From positions 1 to 40,713 of IMG/VR virus record IMGVR_UViG_3300042924_003438: a DNA stretch of 40,713 bases; one strand, 5' to 3'. The position numbers and the translations under genes are program-made. The stretch comes from a virus. Lineage: Duplodnaviria; Caudoviricetes. The notes under the pieces are model-generated. The model was not told the DNA's origin. It ran no database searches and was given only the letters and a program-made list of their open reading frames with translations. Below, piece by piece: positions 128 through 38,926 of this stretch (positions are counted from its first letter, which is position 1; every line of letters starts with the position of its first letter).

Positions 128-2498
128 TGATTATTCCATTGAAAACATTGAACTTGGTAATATATCGGGTGCGCATTCCAAAAGGAACGTCACCCTTCCA
201 GCAACTAAAACAAACGTAAATATATTCCAAAACATTACCGATGCTGGGGCGATTGTAACCAATGCTTACAAGTTATTGTCAGCAAGATTAGAAGCCGATG
301 GCGTGCCAATACTTACAGGAAAAGCAAGGTTGGAGGGTGCAGATTTACAGGCAATCAATTCGGGTTTTGTTGCGTCCAATTTCAAGGTCTCATTGATTGG
401 TAATAATGCAGATTGGTTTGCGGACGTGGGTAACACATTAGTGAGGGATTTAGGCTGGGACGACATAGAAATAAATACGGCAAATGTAAAAACCAATTAC
501 GACCCGTTAACGTCGGAACATTGCTACATCCTGATGAAATGGAAGGCGTGGGAAAATGAAACATTTATTGTAAACAATGAGTTAACGCCTGCCATTTTCA
601 TTTGGCAAATATTGGAAAAGGCTTTTGCAAACAAAGGGTATCAACTTAATAGCATCTTTAAGACCGATCCTTTTAACCGTTTGATTATTCCAATGGGTTT
701 AAACCTTGATGCTGATTACATTAAAGATTTTGTAAACCTCAGGGCTTCCAACCCTTCGCCTTCAAGTTTTGTTTATTCGGCTGGTGATTACGGGACGGTT
801 GACATTACATTCACGGACGAAACAACGTCACCAAACTTTGACACAGGTGGCAACTATACGGGCGGCGTTTACACCGTGCCAATAAATGCCTTGTATGAAA
901 TAGCAGCTGAGTTAAATGTTACCTTAACGGCTTCTATTGGTGATATAAACCAGTTCGCGGAACTCATTTTGTTCTTTGAGGTTAACGGAAACAATGTTTC
1001 AACGTATGATTTAACCAACGAAACAAGCCTAAATGATTCAATTCTCCTTGAATTTCTTGGCGATTTAGTGGCAAATGATACCGTAAAACTTAGATTGAGG
1101 TACGAAAATGTTACATTTAGTTTAAATATCGCTGGTTCTTTGTCCGTTGTGGCAGAAAAAGAGGGCTTAGAAACAGGCGAAACGGTAAACTTGCAATATA
1201 TTATCCCTATTTCATGGTATGTTAGGGACATTATTAGCGACCTTACAACGGTCTTTAACCTTGCATGGGAGACAGACGTATTAAACCGTCAAGTATATGC
1301 GTATCCAAAAGACGATTATACAATTAGGTATCGGGCAAATAGCACAGGAGCGGCAAGCCTTACAAGTTTTGACGGGTTCTTTAAAGGCTCAAACAAATAC
1401 GATTTAAATACCCGTGACGTTGATGGCTCAGACTTTCAAGTTTTGGACGGGTATAAATCAAGTCAGGTTCTTGCGTATGCCACGGATGACGATACGACGA
1501 ATAAGGAAGAAGAAAGAAGAGGGGTAAACATTTACTCAGGCGGTTACAACTTCCCCCAGGATAGATTTGAAAATGGCATTGAATTTATTTATACAAAGTT
1601 CTTTGCAAAAGCTATTCATATAAACGACGTTGCCATTACCACAGGCGGAACATACGGCGCACAAATGCCATTAGTCTTTGGCGATGATTATAATACGGTC
1701 ACCGATGCCGAACCCAATTATAACTTGGCGCCTCGTTTGCTTTATTACGCTGGAAGGCGAAACGGCTTAGATGGGTATATAAGATTATACGATGAAACGT
1801 CGAGCGCCTCAAGTGCTTTTGATTTTCCTGCCGCCTTCATGGTAAATTACAATGACCCTAGCGGCGCAGATTTTAACTTATCTTTTTCGGATGAGGTTAC
1901 GAATTACACAAACGTAATGCAAGGTGTTTTTAAAACTTTTCATTTGCAGACTTACAAGCGAATAGAACTGGGTAAGGTTTACACGACCTTTGCGAAATGG
2001 AAACCAAAAGATATAACACAGCTTTCATTCAGGCGCAAGGGAATCATTGGTTCATCTAACTTTATAATTCAAAGTTTGGAGTACAATCCAAAATCCAATA
2101 GCCCAGCCAAAACGGTTTTATTATACGACGAAAAACCAAACGAAAACGATTTGACAAAAGTTGTCAACACGATAACACTTGCTGGGGCTTCGCCTCAAAG
2201 TGGAACGGTAACAGGATCGGGAAGCGGCTTAGTCGGAGCAAATGGCGCAACGGTGAACATCCAATTATCTTACACGCCATTCCTTAATTCAATGACAAAT
2301 GTATTGGTACTTGCGCCTAATTCTGGTATCACTCAGGTATCAAATACAAATGCCAATGTACTTGTATTTATGAACGGGCAAAAGTTGATACCAACCGTTC
2401 AATATATTATTGGTGGCTCAACCATTGGAATTAATGTGAATACTCATTATGACGGGGCAAATTATGAAGTAGTTGTAAATGGCGTAACAAAAGGATAA
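63..2498 (+). CDS. Minor tail / tail-tip structural protein
   Basis: 811 aa, beta-rich, between another tail-type protein and the tape measure; N-terminus (LFIGGQEVDL...SKRNVTLPATKTN) resembles Bacteroidota siphophage tail proteins; C-terminal domain shared with the fibre at 12111. Confidence 0.7.
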   Translation: MIKLFIGGQEVDLNQDEVNVTIDYSIENIELGNISGAHSKRNVTLPATKTNVNIFQNITDAGAIVTNAYKLLSARLEADGVPILTGKARLEGADLQAINSGFVASNFKVSLIGNNADWFADVGNTLVRDLGWDDIEINTANVKTNYDPLTSEHCYILMKWKAWENETFIVNNELTPAIFIWQILEKAFANKGYQLNSIFKTDPFNRLIIPMGLNLDADYIKDFVNLRASNPSPSSFVYSAGDYGTVDITFTDETTSPNFDTGGNYTGGVYTVPINALYEIAAELNVTLTASIGDINQFAELILFFEVNGNNVSTYDLTNETSLNDSILLEFLGDLVANDTVKLRLRYENVTFSLNIAGSLSVVAEKEGLETGETVNLQYIIPISWYVRDIISDLTTVFNLAWETDVLNRQVYAYPKDDYTIRYRANSTGAASLTSFDGFFKGSNKYDLNTRDVDGSDFQVLDGYKSSQVLAYATDDDTTNKEEERRGVNIYSGGYNFPQDRFENGIEFIYTKFFAKAIHINDVAITTGGTYGAQMPLVFGDDYNTVTDAEPNYNLAPRLLYYAGRRNGLDGYIRLYDETSSASSAFDFPAAFMVNYNDPSGADFNLSFSDEVTNYTNVMQGVFKTFHLQTYKRIELGKVYTTFAKWKPKDITQLSFRRKGIIGSSNFIIQSLEYNPKSNSPAKTVLLYDEKPNENDLTKVVNTITLAGASPQSGTVTGSGSGLVGANGATVNIQLSYTPFLNSMTNVLVLAPNSGITQVSNTNANVLVFMNGQKLIPTVQYIIGGSTIGINVNTHYDGANYEVVVNGVTKG

Positions 2499-11597: not shown

Positions 11598-12114
11598 AGT
11601 AATAGCTGGAGGGGTTGCACGTCCAACACCAGCCGATATAAGACTTGATAAGTCGCTTATTAGCCCACATATTCAAGATGCCGAGTTCCGTTGGATTGTT
11701 CCCGCCATTGGATTAACCTTATATGATTCAATGGTGACAGACAAGGGAAGTTCAACCGCGTTTACATCAACTTCTTATCAAGATATCTGGGACAAACAAT
11801 TAAAATCCTTTTGCGCCAATGCGGTCTTATATGAGGCATCGCCTTATATGGTCATGCAACTTGGTTCAAATGGCTTGTACACTTTAGACAATGAGTATGG
11901 GCAAAACGTCGGGGTTGATGGTTTAAAGTTTTATCAAGATACTTTGTTACAAAGGTTGGACGTAAAAAAGAAAAGGATTAAAGATTTGCTTTGCAATTAC
12001 TCAACACCTTTGACCGCCTTTATTCCCAGCGCCATTGGTTGCCCTGAGTCAACTTGCGATGAACACGAGGAAGAAATAACAGATATTTACAATACTTTAG
12101 GCATTGTGTTATGA
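11572..12114 (+). CDS. Putative head-tail adaptor (DUF6712-like)
   Basis: Follows the portal; ISPHIQDAEFRWIVPAIGLTLY pattern. Confidence 0.6.
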   Translation: MSQLIQPSEVIAGGVARPTPADIRLDKSLISPHIQDAEFRWIVPAIGLTLYDSMVTDKGSSTAFTSTSYQDIWDKQLKSFCANAVLYEASPYMVMQLGSNGLYTLDNEYGQNVGVDGLKFYQDTLLQRLDVKKKRIKDLLCNYSTPLTAFIPSAIGCPESTCDEHEEEITDIYNTLGIVL

Positions 12115-15100
12115 TAGAGAAACCAAAAAAAGAAAGGCGATTCCTCAAGGCATTGGGGCGCGTCGGTGAAATATTATTACAAGAGGTTTTAATCAAAGTC
12201 GGGAGTAGTTTAATTAAGAGGATTGGAGGCAAAAAACAAATACCTTCAATTCTTTTTTTATTCCTTTCTATTAGCCTTTACGGTCAATTCCCTATTAATA
12301 TAAATAAACAAAGATTAGGTTTCCAGACCACGGCAGACGGATTGGTTTGGCGGGGTTCAATTTCCGATACGGCAAGCATTCAACCAGTTTCAAATCAAAA
12401 CGCATGGGTTATTCTTGACACCGTTAATCTAAAAATATATTCCTTTGATTTTACTTCCAATGTTTGGAATCAATTACCATCGGGCTCAACAGTTGATACA
12501 ACAACATTAAGTAATAGAATTAATTTAAAATTAAATATAAGCGATACGGCGGCAATGCTTTTGCCTTATGCTAAAAAAAGTTATGTCGATACGGCTGGCA
12601 GATTTTACGCGCGTCAAGACTTTACGAATGTTTCTTCCTCAACCTTGACTTGGACGCAAACGGACACATTAGTCCCAGCTGGTGTAAACGTGGTGCAAGT
12701 TTATAGAAACGGTCAAATACTTTTGCCAACCCAATATACCATACCAACAAACGCATCAGTTGTCATTGGTGCAACTGCTTTTAAGTTAGGGGAAAATTAT
12801 ACAGTTATATTTCCTAAAGGTGGAGGCGGTTCGGGTAGTGGTGGTTCGGGTTCACTAACCTCTATTTCTGGAGGAACAGGAATAACGGTAAGTCCTGACC
12901 CAATAACAACCACGGGCACGGTGTCGGCTGACCTTACCGTATTAATGGAGTTATCTGATACGGTTACGTTATCCAATAGAATAAATAATAAGGTAAATAT
13001 TTCTGATACGGCTTCAATGCTTCTTCCTTATTTCCGTGATGCCGATACCTCTTTATTAAATCTTACTTCCAGATTTGCATTAAAATTAAATGCAGCAGAC
13101 ACGGCTTCATTGTCCTCAAGAATAAATACTAAGGGAACAGTATCAAGCGTTGCAACGGGCTTCGGCTTGCTCGGTGGAACAATCACAACGACAGGAACTT
13201 TACTACTTGATTCGGCGGTTGTATTTACACGGATACGGGATTCGATTGTTGACGTTGCTATTGGGAATGATACGATAAAGATTTTAAAACAAGAATACGC
13301 ACCAGCCTTAACAAGCGTTTTGACTTGGACGATAACGCCTAAGTTTCCAATTCAATTAAAGGCGTATATTTTAGTGTTTAGAAATGGTCAACTATTAAAT
13401 AATGACCAATATAATTTAACAGATACAAATAAAATTACCATTGTTTCTACCTCTTTCAAAGTTGGGGCTAATTATACCGTCGCAACAGTCAGCGGAATTG
13501 GTTCGGTTGGTTCGGCTCAAGGTGACCCTGTTTATCCTGAGGCTGGTATTGCCTTGTCAACTGGTTCAACTTGGGCGTCATCTATTCCTAATAATTCGGT
13601 TAATTGGAACATTGCATACAATGATAAAATAAACAATGCAGTTTTTACGGGAACAGATACAAAAACATTAACCTTAACCCAGTTAGATGGTGGAACATTT
13701 GCGCCAACGTTTAACGATTTGCAAGGGGTGACGGGTGTAACGGCGGGAACAGGGTTAACGGGTGGAACAATAAGTACAACAGGCACGGTGGCGGTTGATT
13801 TTGGTGTGGTTGCGCCTTTGGCAAATCCCACATTTACGGGTACGGTTGGAGGTATTACTAAAAGTATGGTTGGTTTAGGAAATGTAGATAATACGTCGGA
13901 TGCTAATAAACCCGTATCAACCGCAACACAAACAGCGTTGAATTTAAAGTTTAATACCGCAGATACAACATTATTAAACCTTACTTCCAGATTTGCGGCA
14001 AAGCAAAACACATTAACCAACCCAGTTACGGGAACGGGAACAACAAATACTTTGCCATTATTTACAGGCACATCTACATTAGGTAATTCTGTCATTCAAG
14101 AAAGTAGCGGAAATATTGGCATAGGTGTAGCCCCAACGTCAAACTTAGAATTAGCGAAAGGTAAATTTATTACATTAAATAGTAGTGGTTCACCTTTTCA
14201 AGATTCTTCTGGTATAATGCTATACGAAGTAGGTACTAAAACTGCAAATGATATAAATTTTGGTGCAAAAATTATGTATAATGGAGATTCAGATAATTTT
14301 GAAATTAAAATGAAAAATTTTAATGGAACAACTTTATTTAATCCTCCCGTATCAATATCAATTCCTCGTGTAACTGGCAATGTTAATATAGGAACATCTC
14401 TTGCGGTCACAGGCGCAATTACCGAAGGCGGTAACAATGTTTTAACCAACCTTGACACCGTGAGCCTAAGTAATCGTATTGATGCAAAATTAAATAAAAC
14501 AGATACGGCTTCTTTATCAAGTAGGATTGACCTAAAATTAAATAAAACCGACACGGCTTCATTATCAAGTCGTATTGATAGTAAAGTATCTTTAACAGGA
14601 GACCAAACAATTAATGGAATTAAAACATTTGGAAACCAAGTTAATATGTCGGGGCAAATCACGATAAGTGGTTCGGTTTCGGGAGCAAATAGATTACTTG
14701 GTAAAAATACAAGTAATAATGGTGTAGGTGATATTACGCTTGGCACAGGATTGAGCCTTGCAAGTAATATTTTGACTGCAAGCGGAACAGATACGAGCTC
14801 ACTTTCAGATAGAATAAATTTAAAATACAATAGTTCTGGTGGCACAATTTCGGGAGCGGTCACTCTTTCCACAACCTCTGCAACTCCTACAAGTTTACTT
14901 GGCAAAGATGGAAGCAATGTGGTTGGAATGGTTACAACGGTGGCACAAACGGGGTTATTTGGAAGAGGTTCAGTATCAAATGAAGAAACAGATGCAAATG
15001 GAAATATTACCGTTGCGCATGGGTTTAACTTTACTCCTATTATGGCATTTGCAAATCTTCCAGGACAAACAACTAATATTATAAATGTCAAAGAGGTTGA

Positions 15101-15197
15101 TGCAACAAATATTACTTTTGTTGTAAGAGATGGAGCAACAAACAACGTATTAAATACGCAAACGGTAACTAAAATTGAATTTTTCGCAATAAAATAA
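12111..15197 (+). CDS. Tail-fibre-like protein with extended signal peptide and DTxxLSxRI repeats
   Basis: Fibre motifs (TKSMVGLGNVDNTSDANKPVSTATQTAL, APLANPTFTGT, GDQTINGIKTF, GNIGIG); hydrophobic ILFLFLSISLYG followed by Q59. Confidence 0.75.
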   Translation: MIEKPKKERRFLKALGRVGEILLQEVLIKVGSSLIKRIGGKKQIPSILFLFLSISLYGQFPININKQRLGFQTTADGLVWRGSISDTASIQPVSNQNAWVILDTVNLKIYSFDFTSNVWNQLPSGSTVDTTTLSNRINLKLNISDTAAMLLPYAKKSYVDTAGRFYARQDFTNVSSSTLTWTQTDTLVPAGVNVVQVYRNGQILLPTQYTIPTNASVVIGATAFKLGENYTVIFPKGGGGSGSGGSGSLTSISGGTGITVSPDPITTTGTVSADLTVLMELSDTVTLSNRINNKVNISDTASMLLPYFRDADTSLLNLTSRFALKLNAADTASLSSRINTKGTVSSVATGFGLLGGTITTTGTLLLDSAVVFTRIRDSIVDVAIGNDTIKILKQEYAPALTSVLTWTITPKFPIQLKAYILVFRNGQLLNNDQYNLTDTNKITIVSTSFKVGANYTVATVSGIGSVGSAQGDPVYPEAGIALSTGSTWASSIPNNSVNWNIAYNDKINNAVFTGTDTKTLTLTQLDGGTFAPTFNDLQGVTGVTAGTGLTGGTISTTGTVAVDFGVVAPLANPTFTGTVGGITKSMVGLGNVDNTSDANKPVSTATQTALNLKFNTADTTLLNLTSRFAAKQNTLTNPVTGTGTTNTLPLFTGTSTLGNSVIQESSGNIGIGVAPTSNLELAKGKFITLNSSGSPFQDSSGIMLYEVGTKTANDINFGAKIMYNGDSDNFEIKMKNFNGTTLFNPPVSISIPRVTGNVNIGTSLAVTGAITEGGNNVLTNLDTVSLSNRIDAKLNKTDTASLSSRIDLKLNKTDTASLSSRIDSKVSLTGDQTINGIKTFGNQVNMSGQITISGSVSGANRLLGKNTSNNGVGDITLGTGLSLASNILTASGTDTSSLSDRINLKYNSSGGTISGAVTLSTTSATPTSLLGKDGSNVVGMVTTVAQTGLFGRGSVSNEETDANGNITVAHGFNFTPIMAFANLPGQTTNIINVKEVDATNITFVVRDGATNNVLNTQTVTKIEFFAIK
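14454..14586 (+). repeat. Tandem 48-bp coding repeat, about 3 copies (DT[V/A]SLS[N/S]RIDxKLNKT)
   Basis: gacaccgtgagcctaagtaatcgtattgat / gatacggcttctttatcaagtaggattgac / gacacggcttcattatcaagtcgtattgat. Confidence 0.85.
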
Positions 15198-15202
15198 TAA
15201 AC

Positions 15203-16375
15203 ATGAAACAACTCCTTTCCCTTTTCCTCTTCCTTGTCCCTTGCCTTGCATGGGCACAGTATCCGAGCAATGGCAATCAAAAGATAACACTGGGTGAACA
15301 GACGACTGCCGACGGGCTAATTTGGCGTGGGGTAGCTTCTGATACTACCTTGACTGTAAAGAGTGACACGGCTGCTTATTTTGTTCTTGATACGGCAAAC
15401 ATAAATTTATACACTTACAAGGCTTCGGCAACTGGTCGAAAATGGCGGCAACTTGGAGTAGACACGGCAGCTATTGCCTATGTGAACACCTATGGAACGC
15501 AAACGGTAAATGGTGCAAAAACATTTAGCGCCGCAACTACTTTTAGTAATACGGCAACGGCTACTAAATTTATACCAACAGATAGCGTAAGAGCAGGTTA
15601 TGGTATGTATAGAGTAAACTCAAAAACAGTTGGAATAAATGCAAATGGCATTGCTCCTTTCAGGATTACAGATGATGGAAACTGGGGTTTAATTGACGAA
15701 AATCCACAAAATTTACTAACAACTTTCTCATCTAATGCAAGAGGTGGTGTTATTTCTAATAGTTACCCTATATTAATGTTTAATGAAGTCGGTAAATCAA
15801 AGTTCGTTTTTGGTTTAGATGAAAATGAAGGTTATTTATTTGGCTTTACAGATGTAAAATTAATAATAGCAACAAATGGTACCGAAAAAATGCGTGTAGA
15901 AACAAGCGGTAACGTTGGCATTGCAACTCCAAATCCAACCGAAAAACTGCACGTTGTCGGCAATACAAGGATAACGGGCAATGTTGGAATAGGTGTTACT
16001 ACTCCAACAAATGCTATTGACATGGTTGGGCAAATAAGAATGACAGGCGCAACTATTGCATCTGGTTTAACTAAAAATATTAATATTAGTGGTGCTCAAA
16101 ATTTTACTGATGATGAGGTAAAAACTATATCTGCTGGTAATGTTACTTTTATAATGGTATCAGATAATAACACAGGAGGTGGTGCTTTATTTTTTGCGTC
16201 GTATGCTTCTGGTACAGTGGTAAAAATAGCAGACCCAAGTAATTTTGGAGCAGTTACAGATTTAGATGGTTTTGTTTGTGTTTACAAAAGTGCAAGCAGT
16301 GCTACTATAAATGTTAAAAATAGATTAGGTTCAACAAAAAGTATAACTGTAAGTCAAATAACAGTTGGAGATTAA
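15203..16375 (+). CDS. Second fibre-like protein with Sec signal peptide
   Basis: MKQLLSLFLFLVPCLAWA|Q; N-terminal domain paralogous to 12111 (QTTADGL[VI]WRG); GTQTVNGAKTF and EKMRVETSGNVGIATPNPTEKLHVVGN fibre-type motifs. Confidence 0.75.
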   Translation: MKQLLSLFLFLVPCLAWAQYPSNGNQKITLGEQTTADGLIWRGVASDTTLTVKSDTAAYFVLDTANINLYTYKASATGRKWRQLGVDTAAIAYVNTYGTQTVNGAKTFSAATTFSNTATATKFIPTDSVRAGYGMYRVNSKTVGINANGIAPFRITDDGNWGLIDENPQNLLTTFSSNARGGVISNSYPILMFNEVGKSKFVFGLDENEGYLFGFTDVKLIIATNGTEKMRVETSGNVGIATPNPTEKLHVVGNTRITGNVGIGVTTPTNAIDMVGQIRMTGATIASGLTKNINISGAQNFTDDEVKTISAGNVTFIMVSDNNTGGGALFFASYASGTVVKIADPSNFGAVTDLDGFVCVYKSASSATINVKNRLGSTKSITVSQITVGD

Positions 16376-16393: not shown

Positions 16394-17017
16394 ATGAAAA
16401 ACTTAAATTTTTTTATCATCTTTTTATTGCCTTTTACAATTTATTGTCAAAATGTAATATCAGACACAAGTTATGTGATTTCTGAAAATGGGTATTTTTA
16501 TTTAAATAATACAATTAATTACGATGACAATAGTTATGTAATTAATAAAACATTTATTGGAGATACTGTTCAATTTTACGCATCAACTCTTAGAAATTTT
16601 CAAAATAAAGCATCTGATTTTAGTATAAAAGTTGTAAGAACAAATATGTTTTCAAAGGAAATTTCCGCTGCTATTCGTGAAAATAAAAACATCGAATTAA
16701 TTACTGGCAAAAATCCTATTGATACTTTAGGTTTACAAACTTTTAAATTTTTATCTGATGATAAATTTAAATGGTCAATAAATACTGGTAGTGGATTTAT
16801 CCCGATTACATTTAATATTACCGTTGCAAAGGTTTTGCGTTATTCTATTGATAATACTGCATCTCGTACAATGTACGGTTTTGGACAAAATGTAATTAGG
16901 TTAACATCCTTTCCAACAACTGGTAATTTTCTCGATTTGTATTGGGACGAAGGAAGGAAATTATATGTTAGTCAAGATGGAAAAAGTATTGTTAAACGCT
17001 TAGTATTAAACCGATGA
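16394..17017 (+). CDS. Hypothetical secreted protein
   Basis: MKNLNFFIIFLLPFTIYC|Q signal-peptide-like N-terminus. Confidence 0.6.
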   Translation: MKNLNFFIIFLLPFTIYCQNVISDTSYVISENGYFYLNNTINYDDNSYVINKTFIGDTVQFYASTLRNFQNKASDFSIKVVRTNMFSKEISAAIRENKNIELITGKNPIDTLGLQTFKFLSDDKFKWSINTGSGFIPITFNITVAKVLRYSIDNTASRTMYGFGQNVIRLTSFPTTGNFLDLYWDEGRKLYVSQDGKSIVKRLVLNR

Positions 17018-17418
17018 AAGCAGTTATCTACAACATTTTTAAACTTGGTTACGATGGCATTGCCTATTCCATTTGTTGCGGAGTGCTATTCTCGTTTTTC
17101 CTACCCATCAAACATTTTTTGATTTTTACAATCTTTGTAGTTTTTGCAGACACGGTCACGGGAATCATGGCGGCAAGGAAAAGGGGAGAGGCGATAACGA
17201 GCAAAGGGCTTTATCGCACATCGCAAAAGGTGGTGACCTATTTCTGCGGTATAATGATTTTTCACGGGGCAAGTATAACTTTTGGACTGCCATCGCAAAT
17301 CACCTATTCTGTAAGCTTCATCATTGCAGCCACGGAATTGTTTAGTATTTCGGAAAATATAAAGTCCATAACTGGAACAAATATTGGTACAATTATTCTT
17401 AGATTTTTCAGACGTTAA
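17014..17418 (+). CDS. Holin (phage holin 4-1-like)
   Basis: Several TM segments; ADTVTG...ITSKGL...K and ELFSISENI motifs; upstream of the amidase. Confidence 0.85.
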   Translation: MKAVIYNIFKLGYDGIAYSICCGVLFSFFLPIKHFLIFTIFVVFADTVTGIMAARKRGEAITSKGLYRTSQKVVTYFCGIMIFHGASITFGLPSQITYSVSFIIAATELFSISENIKSITGTNIGTIILRFFRR

Positions 17419-17429
17419 AACAAAATAAA

Positions 17430-17726
17430 ATGATACAAACTAATTTAAAGGATGCCCTTAAAAATGCAGATGGAATAAAGTCACCAATGGGCGACGTGGC
17501 TTGTTACTCAATGAACTTTGCGGAATTAGCCTCGGAGATAAATGTTCATCTTGAAGGCAACAAGGTAAAATTTACTTGGCGCGAGTACATCCAACTTGCT
17601 CAAATCATTTGGGATAAAATCAAGGAGACAAGCCGCGAATGTGCTGGTAAAGAGATTTCGGTTAGTTTACCGCCAAAATTTTCTATAATTTCAGCTGCAT
17701 TTTCGCTCATCGGGTTTAAGTTATAG
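17430..17726 (+). CDS. Hypothetical protein in lysis cassette
   Basis: Between holin and amidase; hydrophobic C-terminus. Confidence 0.6.
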   Translation: MIQTNLKDALKNADGIKSPMGDVACYSMNFAELASEINVHLEGNKVKFTWREYIQLAQIIWDKIKETSRECAGKEISVSLPPKFSIISAAFSLIGFKL

Positions 17727-17798
17727 GCGCAGAGAATCGCTACCTTATGCGTTTACAGGGCGGTGCATTGATTTGCGTCGCCCTTAAAAATATAAAAT

Positions 17799-18458
17799 AT
17801 GAAAGCAAATAAATTTTGTGTTTTCCTTGATGCTGGACACGGCGGCATCGATGCAAAGAAAAAGTTACCGTTTAATTACACAACCTACCCATCAAAGTGC
17901 TTCCAGCATAACAACTCAATGTTCCACGGTTACGGTTGGTTTTTTGAAGGCGTATTCAACAGGGAAGTCGCTGCAAAGATTGAGCAGTATTTAAAGGACT
18001 GGGGATTGTCGGTTATCAATGTTTACGACCCTGTCATTGATATTAGCCTTACTAAGCGCGTAGCAAAGGCAAACATGAACGCCCAGAACTATGAGGCTTC
18101 CTTGTTCCTCAGTATCCACGGCAACGCAGCAACACCAACCGCAAGGGGCTTTGAAGTGTTTACATCAATCGGGCAAACAAAGGCTGATATTTACGCCACC
18201 TTCCTTTTTGATGAAGTCAAGGAGGCTTTCCCAAAATGGGTTTATAGAATGGACACGATTGACAATGACCCAGACAAGGAGGCTAATTTCTTTGTACTGA
18301 GCCAAACCAGTATGCCAGCCGTCTTATCGGAAAACGGTTTCTTTACCAATTACAAAGATGCCGTCATGATGTTCGACCCAGCCTTCCAAGATACATTGGC
18401 GCTTTGTCATGCACGGGCGGTGGTTGATTACGCAAAGACGCAAGGGGTTACCTTTTAA
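17799..18458 (+). CDS. Endolysin, N-acetylmuramoyl-L-alanine amidase (Amidase_3)
   Basis: LDAGHGG, E (FEGVFN), FLSIHGNA, PAVLSENGF zinc-amidase motifs. Confidence 0.93.
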   Translation: MKANKFCVFLDAGHGGIDAKKKLPFNYTTYPSKCFQHNNSMFHGYGWFFEGVFNREVAAKIEQYLKDWGLSVINVYDPVIDISLTKRVAKANMNAQNYEASLFLSIHGNAATPTARGFEVFTSIGQTKADIYATFLFDEVKEAFPKWVYRMDTIDNDPDKEANFFVLSQTSMPAVLSENGFFTNYKDAVMMFDPAFQDTLALCHARAVVDYAKTQGVTF

Positions 18459-20185: not shown

Positions 20186-21031
20186 TTAAAAAACATTGTA
20201 TTCTTTTTTCAACGGAAAATTATCCTTTTTGATTTGCCAGTATTCAGCCATTAATGAGGCACGGAACTTGTAATCCCTATCAGTATGATAACCTGATTTG
20301 TACACGCATTTACAAATACTTTCGTATAACTTAATCCCTTTGATTTTGTAATTTGCCTTTTTACAGGCGGCGTATCTTCCAGAGTTAAGAACACCAGCCC
20401 AAAGGTTCATACCTTCTTCCGTGCTGGATGCTTTCATAAACTTTGCCTTAATGTATTTATCTCTTCCTTTTATTACCTCCCGTGTTTTGTAGGTTACAGA
20501 TTGTTTTCCTTTCAAAGCCTTAACCCCTCCAGCGTTGGCGTGTTTGCGCCAAAGTTCAGTTTCAATTCCTTGACTGGTTGCCTCAATAATGAAAAAGGAA
20601 TAAATCATTGACACGGGAAAATCTGTTAAAACGTGTACGTTCATTAACATTGATTCATAACAATAAGCAAGGTATATGCGGCGAAGCTTTGCCCTGTCAA
20701 CCTTTGCAAGGTTTCGAAAACCTCTACCTTCCAGCGTTTGCCTAAGTTGTAATCCTGATAACTTGCGCACCTCGTAACCGTAGGAGCGTGACCCGTAGGC
20801 GGTTTCGTCAATCTCTTTGTCCTCAGCCTTCGCGGGGAAAGTCAGGGTCGTTATTTTGTGGACATACACCGTGTCCCGTTGAATAATAGGAACAAAGGAA
20901 GTATAATTGTAATTTGTGTTTATTGGGGAATAAATCAACCCGATAATAAAGGCAATGCCAACCCCTGCAGCAATCTGGAAGGGAAGGCGTTTGTTTTGCG
21001 GAACGTATGTTTCAATAATTGGCTCTTTCAT
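20186..21031 (-). CDS. Membrane-anchored peptidoglycan hydrolase, GH73/FlgJ-like glucosaminidase
   Basis: FIIEA (catalytic Glu), NAGGVK, TREV, GYHTDRDY (GYATDPxY-like); N-terminal TM IAAGVGIAFIIGLIY. Confidence 0.7.
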   Translation of the reverse strand: MKEPIIETYVPQNKRLPFQIAAGVGIAFIIGLIYSPINTNYNYTSFVPIIQRDTVYVHKITTLTFPAKAEDKEIDETAYGSRSYGYEVRKLSGLQLRQTLEGRGFRNLAKVDRAKLRRIYLAYCYESMLMNVHVLTDFPVSMIYSFFIIEATSQGIETELWRKHANAGGVKALKGKQSVTYKTREVIKGRDKYIKAKFMKASSTEEGMNLWAGVLNSGRYAACKKANYKIKGIKLYESICKCVYKSGYHTDRDYKFRASLMAEYWQIKKDNFPLKKEYNVF

Positions 21032-27868: not shown

Positions 27869-28570
27869 ATGAACTATTTGATTATAACCTCAATTACTGG
27901 AAACAAAGACGTACTGGTTGACCCTGATACGACCTTTGATAATTGTACTTACCTTGCTTTTGTCGATGAAGTTAACCATGACCTAAATGTCTGGAATCAA
28001 GTCCAGAACCATCAGTTTAGTATGATTGACCCGTTAAGGCACAGACGAAACGCAAAGGCTGAAAAGATACTTTGCATTCCCCAGGCTTTAAATATTGACT
28101 TTGATTATATCATTTGGCATGATGGAACACACCAACTGGCAATCCACCCCGAAGAAATTATTAAGGAATACGGCGACGCTGATTTATATGTTTTCCGTCA
28201 CGCGCAAAGACGTTGTTTATACCAAGAAATAGCCGCCGTGCTTGAGGCAAAGTTAGACAATGAAGACCTTGTAAAAAGTCAAATCAACTTTTATCAATCA
28301 GTTGGAATGCCGCCTTATTTTGGGCTATATGAAATGGGGTGTTATATCAGGAAGGTGAATCAAATTACGATTGATTTTGGTTTAGCTTGGTTTGAACAAG
28401 TCTGCAAGTTTTCCAGCCGTGACCAGATTTCTTTTCCTTTTGTCCTTTGGAACTACGAGGAAAGAATAAAGGTTGCAATCTTAAAAGGTAACTGTTCAAA
28501 ATATATCGGGACGCCGTTTGAAAACGAGGGAAATAAATATTTTATAAATCATGCAAACCACATTAAATGA
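27869..28570 (+). CDS. Glycosyltransferase-like protein (DUF616/TOD1-MUCI70 family)
   Basis: ITSITGNKD, IWHDG, FRHAQRRCLYQE, SSRDQISFPFVLW motifs. Confidence 0.8.
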   Translation: MNYLIITSITGNKDVLVDPDTTFDNCTYLAFVDEVNHDLNVWNQVQNHQFSMIDPLRHRRNAKAEKILCIPQALNIDFDYIIWHDGTHQLAIHPEEIIKEYGDADLYVFRHAQRRCLYQEIAAVLEAKLDNEDLVKSQINFYQSVGMPPYFGLYEMGCYIRKVNQITIDFGLAWFEQVCKFSSRDQISFPFVLWNYEERIKVAILKGNCSKYIGTPFENEGNKYFINHANHIK

Positions 28571-29676
28571 TACCATTATTTAAAGTTGCCATGAATCCAG
28601 AGGCATCAAAAGCCGTGGACAAAGTTTTATCCTCAGGCTTTATTGGTCAGGGTGAAGTGGTGGAGGAGTTTGAACGCCAATTAAAGCAAAGCTTCAATAA
28701 TCCTTACCTTGTTACGGTCAACTCAGGGACAAGCGCTTTGCAACTTGCTTTAAGAATAATTAAGGACAAACACCCCGAAAAAAAATATATTATATCAACT
28801 CCGTTGACTTGCACGGCGACCAACTGGGCAATACTTGCGGCTGGGTTTGAAATCATTTGGGCAGATATTGACCCTAACACTTTAAATATTTGTCCCTTAT
28901 CGGTCGCTAAATCTGTTACTCCTTTGGTTGCGGCGGTTATGGTTGTTCATTGGGGAGGTGCGGCAGCAGACGTAAAAAAAATAAAGTCATTAACAGGTCT
29001 TGATATTATCGAAGATTGTGCGCACGCCTTCGGTTCATACTATGAACTCCCAGCCACTAAAGATGAAAGTACATTGGTTGGGAACTCAGGAAATTACTGT
29101 TGCTTTTCTTTTCAAGCAATAAAACACCTTACCACGGGTGACGGTGGATTATTGATTTTACCAAATGAAGAAGAATATAAAAAGGCAAAGTTACTTCGTT
29201 GGTATGGCATTGACAGGGAAGGTGACAGAAAGGATTTTAGATGCGAAGCACCGATAAACGATTGGGGATATAAATTCCACATGAACGATATTAACGCAGC
29301 CATCGGGATTGAGAACCTTAAAATATTTGGGGATAACGTCAGAAGACACCAAAATAATGCTGGGTTTTACGACTGGTGGTTAAATGAAAACAGTAGGTTT
29401 ATAACCCCTTTATATTTTGACGAAGGCTCATCGTATTGGATATATTCCATTTTGGTTGAGGATAGGGACAATTTTCAAAGGGCAATGAAAGAACGTGGTG
29501 TAATGACCTCGCAAGTTCATGAGCGGAACGATTTACACCCGTGCGTAAAGCAATTTAAAACAGAACTACCAAACATTGAACAAGTAATTGGCAAGTTGTC
29601 AAGCCTTCCAGTCGGCTGGTGGGTGACGGACGAGGATAGGGAATATATTGTTAAACAGATAAAAAAAGGTTGGTGA
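28567..29676 (+). CDS. DegT/DnrJ/EryC1/StrS PLP-dependent sugar aminotransferase
   Basis: VNSGTSAL, IIEDCAHAFG, FSFQAIKHLTTGDGG (PLP Lys), GYKFHMNDINAAIG. Confidence 0.93.
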   Translation: MIPLFKVAMNPEASKAVDKVLSSGFIGQGEVVEEFERQLKQSFNNPYLVTVNSGTSALQLALRIIKDKHPEKKYIISTPLTCTATNWAILAAGFEIIWADIDPNTLNICPLSVAKSVTPLVAAVMVVHWGGAAADVKKIKSLTGLDIIEDCAHAFGSYYELPATKDESTLVGNSGNYCCFSFQAIKHLTTGDGGLLILPNEEEYKKAKLLRWYGIDREGDRKDFRCEAPINDWGYKFHMNDINAAIGIENLKIFGDNVRRHQNNAGFYDWWLNENSRFITPLYFDEGSSYWIYSILVEDRDNFQRAMKERGVMTSQVHERNDLHPCVKQFKTELPNIEQVIGKLSSLPVGWWVTDEDREYIVKQIKKGW

Positions 29677-30059
29677 TGATTAAGTTAATTGTAAGTGGTC
29701 GCGTCGGTCAAGACGCTGAGGTAAAAAATGTCGGTGATAATACCGTTTGTTCTTTTTCCGTAGCACACACGGAAAAGGTTTACGGGGCAACTCCATCGGA
29801 AAAGACTATTTGGGTGACGTGTTCAATCTGGGGTGAACGTGGTGTCAAACTTGCGCCTCACATTGTCAAAGGTACATACGTGGTCGTGGAAGGAACAGGC
29901 GGGGTAAATGGATACCTAAACAAGAATACTGGAGCAGCCGAAGCTGTCATTAGGTGTATGGTAAATTCTTTGGAATTTGGAGGCAAGTCAACAACTGGGG
30001 AAAATCCAAAGGTAACAGAATCAACGACATTTAAATCAGAATCAGAATTTCCTTTTTAA
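29676..30059 (+). CDS. ssb: Single-stranded DNA-binding protein
   Basis: GRVGQDAE, FSVA, KTIWVTCSIWG, KGTYVVVEG, C-terminal acidic PF tail. Confidence 0.9.
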   Translation: MIKLIVSGRVGQDAEVKNVGDNTVCSFSVAHTEKVYGATPSEKTIWVTCSIWGERGVKLAPHIVKGTYVVVEGTGGVNGYLNKNTGAAEAVIRCMVNSLEFGGKSTTGENPKVTESTTFKSESEFPF

Positions 30060-30060
30060 T

Positions 30061-30243
30061 ATGAATGCTGAAAGAAAAAAAGAATACAGGTTAACCATAA
30101 GCGATTATCAAAGAAAAAAGCATTTGGAATATCTCAGAAATAAATACAATGCTTTATCACCAGAGAAAAAGGCTGAATTGCTTGCTAAAAGAAAAGCAAA
30201 TTATCAAGCAAACAAACAAAAAAAGATTAATGGCATATTTTAA
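30061..30243 (+). CDS. Small basic helical protein
   Basis: 60 aa, Lys/Arg-rich. Confidence 0.55.
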   Translation: MNAERKKEYRLTISDYQRKKHLEYLRNKYNALSPEKKAELLAKRKANYQANKQKKINGIF

Positions 30244-30769
30244 CTACGATATACCCTCAAGTTATTATAAGAATAATATCGGTAAGACCCTTTACAATAC
30301 GGTGCTTACAATGAATCCATCTGTTATCATTGAGTTCGGCACGTTGCACGGTTATTCAGCCGTCGCAATGGCTCAGGCTTTACGAGACTTAGATAGCGAT
30401 ACCGTCATTATGTGTCATGACCTTTGGCAAAAGTACCCGTATAAAAATACGTCGATGGAAAAGACGCAAGATACCATCGACGCGCTGGGGCTAACAAAAT
30501 ATATTGAATTGATTGAATGGGATTTTTATAATTGGAAACCCGAACCTTTTGATTTAATGCACTTTGATATAAGCAACCACGCTGGGCATTTAAAGTATTT
30601 AAAAAGTTTAAAGGAATACCATTTTTTAAACGGCTCAATTTTATTTGAAGGCGGGAGCAAGGAAAGAGACAAAGTAGAATGGATGAAAGATTTTCAGCCT
30701 ATCAATTCATCTGGTTTAAACTTTATTACAATTAACGAGGACTTTCCTTCTTTATCCCTACTCCTATGA
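30230..30769 (+). CDS. Class I SAM-dependent methyltransferase (likely start ATG 30230)
   Basis: IIEFGTLHGYSA motif I; FDLMHFD. Confidence 0.8.
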   Translation: MAYFNYDIPSSYYKNNIGKTLYNTVLTMNPSVIIEFGTLHGYSAVAMAQALRDLDSDTVIMCHDLWQKYPYKNTSMEKTQDTIDALGLTKYIELIEWDFYNWKPEPFDLMHFDISNHAGHLKYLKSLKEYHFLNGSILFEGGSKERDKVEWMKDFQPINSSGLNFITINEDFPSLSLLL

Positions 30770-31470
30770 GGTTAGCCGTTGTTGCCTCAGGTTGGCATTT
30801 CCCCTTAGATTTTTATGAATCAGTCGCAAGGCAAATCGTTGTCAAAGATTGGGCGTATGATTTATTTTGCATCTCACACCGTGACCCAAAGTATTCAAAG
30901 GAGGAAAAAAAGGATTTGGCATTAAAGGAATTGGACACTATTCTTTATAAAGAAATTGCAACCATTGAGCAGATTAAAGACTTAGGCTGGAATTATAAAG
31001 AATACCCGAACACCGTTGGCGATTGGGGATGTTCTAACCAATGGCTGGAAGAACACAATTTTACTGAATACGATTTACTTCTTTTTACGCATGATGACAA
31101 TTTTATTCATAACTACAAATGGTTCGGGAACATCATTCACTTTATGGGAGAAAACTGGGAAATACTTTCTAATTCATGCGGTGACCCTGTTGGTTGGCTT
31201 CGGGGTTCATGTGAGTTCTTTAAGCCTTCTTTGTTGCATAAGATTGGCGGCAAGTTTGATTTGTCATTGGTGACGTTGAACAGGGAAGAAGAAGTTTATT
31301 CACCAGATAAATGGGTTGATATTTTTGATTGGAACAACACGGTACACCCGTTGATGAAGTTTATATCGGAAAACAAAATAGTAGTTGGACATCTGTCAAA
31401 TACTTACAGGCATTCAATGTTTGTGTCCGAGGGTGAACGTGGATTTATTTCCCCAATTTTAAAAAAATAA
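30766..31470 (+). CDS. Putative GT-A fold glycosyltransferase
   Basis: YDLLLFTHDDNF (DxD-like) motif in a sugar-enzyme cluster. Confidence 0.6.
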   Translation: MRLAVVASGWHFPLDFYESVARQIVVKDWAYDLFCISHRDPKYSKEEKKDLALKELDTILYKEIATIEQIKDLGWNYKEYPNTVGDWGCSNQWLEEHNFTEYDLLLFTHDDNFIHNYKWFGNIIHFMGENWEILSNSCGDPVGWLRGSCEFFKPSLLHKIGGKFDLSLVTLNREEEVYSPDKWVDIFDWNNTVHPLMKFISENKIVVGHLSNTYRHSMFVSEGERGFISPILKK

Positions 31471-31473
31471 TAT

Positions 31474-31481
31474 TATATTTG
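31474..31481 (+). promoter_or_regulatory. Bacteroidota -7 promoter element
   Basis: TATATTTG upstream of ATG 31500. Confidence 0.5.
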
Positions 31482-31499
31482 TATAATAATTTAAAAAAA

Positions 31500-31670
31500 A
31501 TGAACACAACAAAACCTCAAGAAATGTACGGGGTAACCTTTAGAAACAAGGTTATAAGGGAAAGGCTGCTGGATATTCAATTTGATTTATGGAAGGCAAC
31601 AGGGAAAAAGCATTCAATGGAAGCAGTCCTTGAAGTTTTATTGAATACCTACAAAAGTATAAATAAATGA
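31500..31670 (+). CDS. Small putative DNA-binding protein (ribbon-helix-helix-like)
   Basis: Beta strand followed by two helices (YGVTF...SMEAVLEVLL). Confidence 0.45.
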   Translation: MNTTKPQEMYGVTFRNKVIRERLLDIQFDLWKATGKKHSMEAVLEVLLNTYKSINK

Positions 31671-32674
31671 GGATTGGCATAGTTTGTAATCTAAGCAGCC
31701 CAACGACTGACTATTATCGCACGGTGAACCCATTTATTAGGCTTCGGGAGGTTTGCCCTCCGAACTTTGTCATAAAGATGATTAACCCTGATACCGTTAA
31801 GTGGTATGATTTTTATGACGTTGATGTTGTTATCTTCCAGCGTGCCAACGGCAATGATTTACTTGGAATGATTAATGAGGTTAAGCGAATGGGTAAGAAG
31901 ATTATCTTAGACCACGACGACCTATTACACGAGGTTAGTGCAGCCAATCCAGCAAGTCAACATTTTAACAAGCCTCAGGTAAAAGAATCAGTCGAAAAGG
32001 CGTTTAAATATGCTGATTGGGTTATGACCTCAACCCCGTACCTAAAAGAATTTTACTCCCAGTTTTACGATACAGACAAAATTACCGTTGTTCCAAATGC
32101 TATTGACTTTACCGTTACACCGATGCAGCCTGTAAAAAGGGATAAGTTAATGGACGCAAAGAAACGAGTTATGTGGCGCGGAAGTCAGACGCACCTTGAA
32201 GACCTTGCAACGGTAAAAAACTTTTGGATTGAGTTACAAAAAAACGATAAGGTTGAATTAGGTATGGTTGGTTTAGCTGATTGGTTGGGCAAAACATTGT
32301 ATCCTAAGGCAATTATTGTACCGTGGAATAATTCCCTTTTCCAATACTTTGAAATGGTTAAACACTCAGCGCCACACTATGGCGTATTCCCTTTGACGAT
32401 TGATAATTTTAATCAAGCGAAGTCAAATAATTTTGCGATGGAAATGTTGGTCGCTGGTTGTATTTCATACGCACCTGAGGAAATCAAGGAATTTAATATT
32501 CCAGGGGTGCGGACATATAAAAACGAATTAGATTTAATCCACAAATTTACTAAGGCTTTAGACAAAGATGATGCGTACTTTGTTGACTTAGAGGCTGGAC
32601 GCAAATGGCTGAAGGAAGAAAGGGACTTGGTTAAGGTAAATGAATTAAGGGTAAATGTATTAAACGCTATATGA
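31667..32674 (+). CDS. GT-B fold glycosyltransferase
   Basis: YYRTVNP, VVIFQR, ILDHDD, VVPNAID, WRGSQTH, PLTIDNFNQAKSN..ME motifs. Confidence 0.8.
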   Translation: MRIGIVCNLSSPTTDYYRTVNPFIRLREVCPPNFVIKMINPDTVKWYDFYDVDVVIFQRANGNDLLGMINEVKRMGKKIILDHDDLLHEVSAANPASQHFNKPQVKESVEKAFKYADWVMTSTPYLKEFYSQFYDTDKITVVPNAIDFTVTPMQPVKRDKLMDAKKRVMWRGSQTHLEDLATVKNFWIELQKNDKVELGMVGLADWLGKTLYPKAIIVPWNNSLFQYFEMVKHSAPHYGVFPLTIDNFNQAKSNNFAMEMLVAGCISYAPEEIKEFNIPGVRTYKNELDLIHKFTKALDKDDAYFVDLEAGRKWLKEERDLVKVNELRVNVLNAI

Positions 32675-33939
32675 AATTAAAGGATATAAAACCAAACCCA
32701 AACAACCCACGGGTTCTTAGAGATGACAAGTTTCAAAAGCTAAAGCAAAGTATCACGGAGTTTCCAAAGATGTTAAGCCTTCGCCCAATGGTCATTGATG
32801 AAAACAACGTGGTTCTTGGTGGCAACATGAGGCTAAGGGCTTTACAAGAACTTGGATTTAATGACATTGATGAGGCATGGGTAAAGCGAAGCAGCGATTT
32901 AACCGAGGAAGAAAAGAAGCGATTTATTATTGCGGACAATGTGGCATTTGGTGAATGGGACTGGGACACGTTGGCGAATGACTGGGATGGTGAAGATTTA
33001 GAATCTTGGGGCTTGGATATACCGCAGTTTGATACGGTTGAAAGCGAAGAGTTAGAAGCAATTGAAGATGATTATGATATGCCAGAGGGAGGAATTGAAA
33101 CAGACATTGTTATTGGTGATTTTTTTCAGATTGGAGAACATCGGTTACTTTGTGGAGATAGCACTCAAACTGACACCTATAAGAAATTAATGAATGGAGA
33201 ATTAGCTGACATGGTTATTACTGACCCTCCTTACAATGTTAATTATGTGGGCAAAACTAAAGATTCATTAAAAATTATAAATGATTCAATGAGTAATGAT
33301 GAATTTTATATATTTTTATATGACTTTTATACTGCATTAGGTAGTTATACAAAATTAGGTGGTGCATGGTATGTTTGGCACGCAGATAGTGAAGGTCATG
33401 TTTTTAGACAGGCGTTTAAAGATTCTGGATTATTGTTAAAGCAATGTTTAATCTGGGTTAAAAATGCATTAGTGATGGGCAGACAGGATTATCACTGGAA
33501 GCATGAGCCATGTTTGTATGGATGGAAAGAAGGTGCGGCGCATTACTTTACAAACGACAGAACCAAAACTACAGTCATAGAAGATGATATAAACTTAAAT
33601 AAATTAACAAAAGAAGAAATGAAAAAAATGCTTAATGAAATATTAAGTGATAAAACAAAATCAACTATACTACATATCAATAAACCACATAGAAATGCAG
33701 AACACCCAACAATGAAACCAATTTTATTATTTGCTCCTCTTATTGAGAATAGTTCAAAAGTAGGGGAAGTAATAGTGGATGGATTTCTTGGCTCAGGAAC
33801 AACAATGGTGGCATCACACCAACTTAAACGCAAATGTTATGGGCTTGAACTTGACCCTAAGTATTGTCAAGTTATTATTGATAGGATGCGCAAACTTGAT
33901 TCAACATTGATTATTAAACGCAACGGTTTAGTTATATAA
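32671..33939 (+). CDS. ParB-like domain fused to beta-class N6A/N4C DNA methyltransferase
   Basis: PNPNNPR...GGNMRLRA...IADN (ParB); LLCGDS, TDPPYN, HPTMKP, DGFLGSGTT, ELDPKY. Confidence 0.92.
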   Translation: MKLKDIKPNPNNPRVLRDDKFQKLKQSITEFPKMLSLRPMVIDENNVVLGGNMRLRALQELGFNDIDEAWVKRSSDLTEEEKKRFIIADNVAFGEWDWDTLANDWDGEDLESWGLDIPQFDTVESEELEAIEDDYDMPEGGIETDIVIGDFFQIGEHRLLCGDSTQTDTYKKLMNGELADMVITDPPYNVNYVGKTKDSLKIINDSMSNDEFYIFLYDFYTALGSYTKLGGAWYVWHADSEGHVFRQAFKDSGLLLKQCLIWVKNALVMGRQDYHWKHEPCLYGWKEGAAHYFTNDRTKTTVIEDDINLNKLTKEEMKKMLNEILSDKTKSTILHINKPHRNAEHPTMKPILLFAPLIENSSKVGEVIVDGFLGSGTTMVASHQLKRKCYGLELDPKYCQVIIDRMRKLDSTLIIKRNGLVI

Positions 33940-38277: not shown

Positions 38278-38474
38278 CAAGTGAAAGGCTCAATGAAAAA
38301 TACGGTTGGTACTTGACAATTAAAAAAGTAGCGGAGTCTGGATTGTTTAATTTAACAGGATTTACACCTATGGAATCAGCAGAAAAAGCAAAATTGTATC
38401 AAGTGTTTCAATACCTTGCAAGCAAAGCGGCAGAAGAAAAGGTAATCGATGATATATCTAAAAGCAAAAAATGA
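38193..38474 (+). CDS. -1 frameshift extension of the tail assembly chaperone (GT form)
   Basis: T9 run at 38193-38201; the -1 frame is open to TGA 38472-38474, encoding DQVKREIYLRFADLY...KYGWYLTI...SKSKK. Confidence 0.8.
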   Translation, partial: FFFDQVKREIYLRFADLYVAKGDGKSQLASERLNEKYGWYLTIKKVAESGLFNLTGFTPMESAEKAKLYQVFQYLASKAAEEKVIDDISKSKK

Positions 38475-38926
38475 GTTTAGTTCAATTAGCAAATATATTC
38501 GAAGCAGCCACCGACGCCGTAAACGGGTTAAACGGCTTTTCTTTTGGCTGGGCATCAGACCGCGTCCGTTCTCAAATATATACGGAAGAAGGCGAAAATA
38601 ATACCAACATATTTCCACGGGTATTCTTTGCCGTGCCAACCTTAACAAACAATCCAGTCACTCGGAGGGACACCTATCAAGTGACTTTGTTTTTTGATGA
38701 CCTTTTAGGCTACGATGAAAACGGGGACGTAGATACAACTTTGCAGATAACAAAGTGGTCAAACTTAATTGCCTTTGCTGAAAGGTTTATTTTGGAACTG
38801 GGAACAACAAAAACAACCAATAGCATTCCAGACCAAGTAAATCTTGTTTTGGATTCCTTTACGTCGATACAAAGGTTAATCACCGTACAGGCTACTTTTA
38901 ATATTTCAATCAAAAGCGAATGTTAG
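38471..38926 (+). CDS. Putative tail terminator/completion protein
   Basis: 151 aa; FPRVF motif; position in the neck/tail block. Confidence 0.55.
   Translation: MSLVQLANIFEAATDAVNGLNGFSFGWASDRVRSQIYTEEGENNTNIFPRVFFAVPTLTNNPVTRRDTYQVTLFFDDLLGYDENGDVDTTLQITKWSNLIAFAERFILELGTTKTTNSIPDQVNLVLDSFTSIQRLITVQATFNISIKSEC

Follow-up and report, generated by a model that had tools for sequence, protein, structure and literature searches.

A putative exported and O-glycosylated fibre module in the genome of a probable Bacteroidota siphophage

The window analysed here (IMG/VR record IMGVR_UViG_3300042924_003438, positions 1 to 40,713; Duplodnaviria, Caudoviricetes) is a complete 40.7-kb phage genome with terminal repeats, and the subject of this report is its fibre module, in which two fibres and a third, smaller protein are each predicted to carry a signal peptide and are rich in D-(S/T)-x sequons. 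Terminase, portal, Clp protease, tape measure, holin and amidase genes were recognised, while no tyrosine integrase was found in the 40.7 kb. The phage is a siphophage, and its matches suggest a Bacteroidota host: Bacteroidota genus names stood on 64 of the 77 phage records matched by the endolysin, the top terminase matches were Riemerella phages, and the top capsid match was Bacteroides phage BS-TP3, whose gene order (protease-capsid-portal-adaptor-fibre slot-holin) is the same as that of the window. Binning was weak host evidence: the fibre base domain occurred at 7 GTDB loci, of which 2 were in Bacteroidota metagenome-assembled genomes (MAGs) and the remaining 5 in bins that were unnamed or belonged elsewhere. 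When searched with the base domain, 301 genomes from the family of the Saprospiraceae MAG used below for control proteins yielded one clear match and two marginal ones; the capsid gave 1 marginal match in 401 genomes, the SSB search yielded no usable host call, and tblastn found no phage isolate matching the fibre N-termini or the fibre module. Relatives were taken from five viral-contig scans (at most 80 loci each) and 120 listed homologues.

In Bacteroidota, D-S/T followed by a hydrophobic residue is the general O-glycosylation target in soluble signal-bearing proteins (PMC12871550). The sequon was scored as D[ST][AILMTV], and the permitted spectrum in family tests included S at the third position. 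The module and the features linked with it are as follows.

12111..15197, + strand: fibre 1, 1028 amino acids (aa), the primary fibre of the module, with a predicted signal, a likely role as branching hub, 16 core sequons and a PHROG tail-fibre match at residues 551-619
12111..12236, + strand: basic amphipathic extension of fibre 1, 42 residues preceding the h-region of the signal (net charge +8, hydrophobic moment as high as 0.87)
12237..12284, + strand: predicted signal peptidase I (SPase I) h/c-region of fibre 1 with Gln at +1 (heuristic prediction)
12285..12490, + strand: conserved N-terminal base domain, common to fibres 1 and 2, sequon-dense, likely docking plug
12495..12590, + strand: first DTxxLSxRI repeat region (later copies begin at 12957, 13098, 14454, 14502, 14550 and 14790)
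12600..12821, + strand: XD-like beta-sandwich 1, with the fold of the T7 gp17 N-terminus and CBA120 TSP4 XD2, predicted docking site of fibre 2
13266..13499, + strand: XD-like beta-sandwich 2, predicted fold
13761..13967, + strand: widespread phage tail-fibre repeat, common to signal-less fibres of unrelated phages
15203..16375, + strand: fibre 2, 390 aa, with an 18-aa predicted signal and Gln at +1; its base domain holds 4 of its 5 sequons
16394..17017, + strand: third signal-peptide protein, 207 aa, overlapping the holin start and belonging to the module
17014..18458, + strand: holin, 98-aa protein and amidase endolysin, directly 3' of the module
2241..2495, + strand: C-terminal XD-like domain of the signal-less tail-tip protein, sequon-free, candidate virion socket

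The base domain of fibre 1 is the core of the module, and a hydrophobic region precedes this domain in 410/410 proteins found by searches seeded with signal-bearing queries. By a heuristic prediction, Gln was at +1 in 48 of 60 fibre 1 proteins, the remainder starting with a sequon-bearing variant, and in 65/66 fibre 2 and 18/18 third-gene proteins, for which the heuristic itself demanded Gln. The module proteins are accordingly predicted to leave the cytoplasm through a Sec signal with Gln at +1, and Bacteroidota Sec substrates are cleaved before Gln (the Q-rule, PMC10653852). The 42-residue extension is conserved on the fibre 1 signal and was in frame with it in 108 cases, with 3 more cut by contig ends; a split form was not found among relatives, and one distant phage lacks the extension. 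A twin-arginine signal was rejected as a reading of this leader: Glu usually stands at the first of the two Arg positions, and the other is variable. From these predicted signals, export of the fibres appears very likely. The third gene is missing in 5 of 47 modules and its product gave a single-sequence fold with a predicted local distance difference test (pLDDT) of 33 and Atlas matches below 0.8; judged from sequence, the product is likely exported with both fibres as part of one three-gene host-recognition module. The chaperone Peptidase_S74 (PF13884) was found in neither window fibre and in 100 of the 120 fibre 2 homologues listed.

The original prediction had counted 16 sequons in the 1028-aa protein, 5 in the 390-aa protein, about 3 in the 811-aa signal-less tail protein and none in the 1149-aa tape measure, and recounting returned exactly these numbers, with 3 in the tail protein. 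Against shuffled sequences fibre 1 stays far above its composition expectation (shuffle mean 5.2, 0/2000; for the mature chain 16 against 5.5 expected, 0/50,000 shuffles), and 1.7 sequons were expected in the 390-aa protein (p=0.017), 3.3 in the tail protein and 3.0 in the tape measure. The sequon had also been described as built into the repeat unit DTxxLSxRI. A permitted motif does stand at the start of 106/106 family fibre copies, and fibre 1 has six strict copies (residues 129, 283, 330, 782, 798 and 814), a further copy with DTS (894) and two variants that match less strictly (312 and 618). Strict repeats hold 6 of the 16 core sequons. With the 8 repeat-type sites masked, 9 sequons remained against 4.0 expected (p=0.012), 2 of the 9 being copies of a second repeat half.

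In family sets dereplicated at 80%, the observed over expected sequon numbers (O/E) were 791/296 (2.67) for fibre 1 (n=60), 276/106 (2.60) for fibre 2 (n=65) and 52/11 (4.75) for the third gene (n=18). A comparison with signal-less fibres used 43 proteins from unrelated phages with a repeat in common with fibre 1 (fragments, proteins below 200 aa and one signal-bearing protein excluded) and gave 283/276 (O/E 1.03). Signal-less adhesin extensions in 14 members of the window phage's own family gave 14/18.5 (O/E 0.76), and the BS-TP3 signal-less proteins of the matching slot were at chance (3/3.3, 4/2.4 and 4/2.6). From 380 kb of one Saprospiraceae MAG, 42 secreted proteins gave 102/72 (O/E 1.42) and 91 cytoplasmic proteins 53/68 (O/E 0.78), and sequon density was 10-16 per 1000 aa in the module proteins versus 4.4 in the host secreted proteins. 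Versions of the motif with Glu or Asn, reversed or with non-permissive residues were not enriched in the family sets, and Asp topped the ranking of all possible first residues, so that the motif of the fibre module is both above chance and Asp-specific, as taken here to mark an O-glycoprotein. N-glycosylation was considered and rejected (N-x-S/T, O/E 0.6-1.2). The third residue is variable, with 53 of 61 types over 16 conserved columns within A/I/L/M/T/V/S, and its spectrum in the family matches that given in PMC12871550. Conserved D[ST] columns numbered 22-73 per 1000 aa in signal-bearing regions versus 3-12 in ten control sets. Motif conservation among these putative substrates is clearest in the 207-aa family, whose subfamilies at 15-22% identity retain little but D-S/T-x, with S and T freely swapped. 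Provided that the fibres are exported, this comparative evidence makes their glycosylation very likely.

Several observations weigh against this reading. The enrichment of the 390-aa protein alone would not survive correction over the 47 open reading frames tested, and the fibre 1 signal is atypically long. A cytoplasmic ParB/DNA-methylase of the window (32671-33939; fused in some relatives and split in others) has 6 sequons against 1.35 expected (p=0.002), and therefore a single-protein sequon count is not proof. High O/E was also found in cytoplasmic families, namely ParB/methylase (101/38.9), SSB (21/5.6) and terminase (120/76.4), none of these dereplicated, as well as holin (7/0.8), the second-lineage tape measure (21/12.7) and tail tip (49/35.4). 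A few conserved single sites inflate family O/E in cytoplasmic proteins (1.4-3.8), and homologues are not independent in the family counts. Repeat sequons lie near the starts of short predicted helices (pLDDT <50), where Asp and Thr are ordinary cap residues.

Some of these points would be accounted for if the D-S/T-x triplets had come from host genes or played a structural part, as helix caps or Asx turns, and were glycosylated incidentally or not at all, without selection in the phage. The low-confidence helix starts and the O/E above 2 in some cytoplasmic families speak for this explanation, as does the preference for Thr over Ser at fibre sequons (632 vs 159), whereas PMC12871550 gives a slight Ser preference. 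So does the presence of the repeat with its sequon in chromosomal secreted fibres, found in 2 of 151 genomes of the order of the Saprospiraceae MAG. However, sites also occur in strands, in loops and in the unrelated third protein, the conserved columns exceed those of all control sets, the homologous signal-less tail-tip domain is without sites, repeat copies have diverged at synonymous sites while keeping the motif, and signal-less fibres of similar composition are not enriched. We consider a purely structural or inherited motif improbable; since repeat sites lie near helix starts, a capping role may coexist with glycosylation. From its distribution the DTxxLSxRI repeat reads as a host-type secreted module that is not phage-specific. 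The chromosomal signal-bearing fibres carry long tandem arrays of the sequon repeat, lie among housekeeping genes and adjoin sensor-kinase-like genes. By eye the base domain seemed related to their N-terminal domain, but hhalign (1.7%) did not bear this out.

The sequons are unevenly placed along the chains. In each of the three proteins the enrichment is 5.5-7.6-fold over the first 120 residues of the mature chain; beyond residue 120 the enrichment is 0.8 in fibre 2 (residues 120-400) and 0 in the third protein, while in fibre 1 it drops to 3.0 and then 1.7. The last 100 residues have 2 sequons per 1000 aa. Sequons thus mark base and stalk, and the tip, where the receptor would presumably be bound, is largely free of them. 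Neither this clustering nor the third signal-peptide gene was part of the original prediction. The originally proposed roles in shielding, adhesion or host mimicry fit poorly because the last 100 residues are nearly bare, and a role of glycans at the base in folding or stability would fit best. The related view that fibres are exported for the sake of a coat serving as shield, adhesin or host mimic draws on the sequon density relative to host secreted proteins, on the self-recognition role suggested for glycans in PMC12871550 and on a phage core glycosyltransferase in 27/27 loci. Against it stand the bare tip, the probable lack of obvious immune pressure on a phage of environmental bacteria, and Cellulophaga phage phi18:3 (GenBank KC821620). 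In this tailed Bacteroidota phage gp085-gp087 are likewise three consecutive proteins with a signal plus Gln before the lysis genes, and they are annotated as virion components with the GenBank note 'experimental MS/MS proteomics' (tandem mass spectrometry). Unlike the window siphophage, phi18:3 belongs to the Pachyviridae, and its proteins have 1 sequon each versus 2.9-3.7 expected. They raise the odds that exported proteins reach virions and, without enrichment, weaken the claim that export serves glycosylation; together with the repeat in chromosomal secreted fibres they leave the idea of secretion in order to be glycosylated unsupported. We hold coating as the purpose of export to be very improbable.

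For docking on the virion, the evidence comes from a structure model covering fibre 1 residues 59-470. Two confident beta-sandwiches were obtained, whose best matches are phage fibre-attachment domains, namely the T7 gp17 N-terminus, HRP29 and CBA120 TSP4 187-250 (Z 7.2, root-mean-square deviation 1.9, 63 aligned). In CBA120, XD domains bind other spikes, and the XD of CBA120 TSP4 and T4 gp10 and the T7 gp17 N-terminus are small beta-sandwich docking domains on a primary fibre that track a secondary one (PMC8825819). Those fibres, unlike what is proposed for the window fibres, assemble in the cytoplasm and have neither signal nor glycan. Among 47 complete modules, fibre 1 had the XD-like domain in 26/26 with a following fibre 2 and in 0/21 without one, with 7 joint changes on the tree of which at least 4 are forced, so that the secondary fibre depends on the docking domain in terms of genetic co-occurrence. 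The signal-less tail-tip protein ends in a domain homologous to the XD-like domains of fibre 1, which is the predicted candidate for a virion socket; a sequon was present in 108/108 distinct fibre copies of this domain versus 1/30 tail-tip copies. A second siphophage lineage with other head and tail genes has the module right after the tape measure, the tail tip and a stand-alone 123-aa signal-less XD domain (8 loci by motif). Fibre and lysis genes thus form a module found in two siphophage lineages whose head and tail genes are unrelated. On the other side, the scores of the fold matches are only middling (Foldseek E 1.5e-3; Z 7.2-7.8), the comparison of 108 with 30 copies draws on about two lineages per side, with one site lying at the domain edge, and XD and fibre 2 could be exchanged en bloc as one cassette without binding, which would give the same pattern.

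The foremost rival concerns location: the proteins would be exported and glycosylated but act on the infected cell as a surface adhesin, a receptor mask or a superinfection block. The DTxxLSxRI repeat of chromosomal secreted fibres agrees with this. The distal part of fibre 2 resembles Bdellovibrio MAT trimeric fibres, which are surface-displayed, and signal-bearing trimeric fibres are also bacterial cell-surface proteins (PMC10769870), a point against a virion location. In the window the module follows the head-tail adaptor and is distant from the tail-tip gene, and 14 relatives have a separate signal-less adhesin. This adhesin is carried by the 151-aa putative tail-completion protein (38471-38926), in which 14 of 36 distinct homologues have 340-600 extra signal-less residues made of repeats and variable adhesin-like domains. 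The rival is opposed by the XD-like virion docking fold common to fibre 1 and tail tip, by the canonical tail-fibre position of the module in the second lineage, by the lack of another recognised receptor-binding candidate in the window genome, by the missing tyrosine integrase together with the coupling of the module to lysis genes, and by the phi18:3 precedent. MAT fibres and chromosomal Bacteroidota fibres are like the window fibres in signal, mosaic build, trimeric form (predicted for the window fibres) and S74 in many relatives (PMC10769870), and the chromosomal fibres in the repeat; both are cellular surface proteins in which no XD-like domains were seen. MAT fibres have a conserved ~130-aa beta-rich domain after the signal, while the window base-domain profile has no PDB match and only the distal part matches MAT. 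Action on the infected cell appears unlikely, and the fibres are probably located on the virion.

The explanation we favour, with some reserve, is an exported, host-O-glycosylated, branched receptor-binding complex that docks on the tail at lysis. The predicted Sec signals and sequon-packed bases make export and host glycosylation likely steps, after which the fibres would dock at the tail tip. The three genes would be expressed late as a host-recognition module, and their products exported by Sec to the periplasm and cleaved before Gln, where the host O-glycosylation machinery would add glycan to the D-S/T-x sites of base and stalk. Trimerisation and branching would follow in the periplasm, with the fibre 2 base domain plugging into the XD-like domains of fibre 1 as in the CBA120 branched complex, and the fibre 1 base would plug into the XD-like domain of the tail tip. 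When holin and endolysin act, the compartments would mix and virions capture the fibres. The most likely task of the glycans would be to hold the undocked base and stalk in solution and protect them from proteases in the periplasm; the glycans may be a consequence of a host-type secreted fibre, later kept by selection, and not the reason for export. The claim that the fibres are exported and O-glycosylated by the host is well supported by comparative sequence evidence and is chemically a prediction. We are evenly divided on the more specific picture of a recognition apparatus built in the periplasm and snapped through an XD socket onto cytoplasm-made virions, which would then carry the glycan of the last host.

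The putative substrates resemble Bacteroidota O-glycosylation substrates (PMC12871550) and Q-rule Sec substrates (PMC10653852) in motif, signal, Gln at +1 and third-residue spectrum. Unlike those host proteins they are phage fibres, are 2-4 times denser in sequons, and have them confined to the base. According to PMC12871550, what O-glycans do in Bacteroidota is for the most part not understood. The literature search, which did not extend to subscription papers, supplements or the original Cellulophaga proteomics tables, found nothing on exported or host-O-glycosylated tailed-phage fibres. Sugars on virion proteins are the point of likeness to two other systems. In mycobacteriophages they are added by the phages' own cytoplasmic glycosyltransferases, while archaeal virus spikes are host-N-glycosylated, those viruses being membrane-containing and not tailed phages. 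Tailed phages are thought to complete their assembly in the cytoplasm; the mechanism proposed here, if true, would place a last assembly step in the periplasm, coupled to lysis, and leave the virion with a chemical mark derived from its host. New in this analysis are the siphophage family, the paired controls with and without signal, the base-restricted sequons and the rule linking XD-like domain and fibre 2. The fibre family offers short, sequon-dense putative O-glycosylation substrates with natural paired controls (one domain, with signal or none), and the socket-and-plug model is concrete enough for tests with purified domains. Virion proteomics in which signal cleavage, pyroglutamate and glycans are left out of account would detect such fibres too rarely.

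Three other gene groups of the genome are noted. A FlgJ-like muramidase (20186-21031, - strand) has a membrane anchor at its N-terminus and, after it, one sequon; a sequon lies within the first 100 residues in 26 of 30 homologues. The muramidase is likely a fourth exported protein, outside the lysis cassette. The sugar-modification genes (27869-32674) include the GT4-like glycosyltransferase (GT) gene present in all 27 full loci; a GT-like gene, a DegT aminotransferase, a methyltransferase and a second GT-like gene were present in 5 of 27, so that this cassette is accessory and not required for the fibre module. An ADP-ribosyltransferase-domain gene (PF03496, 34561-35202) beside DUF4417 was present in 1 of the 27 full loci.

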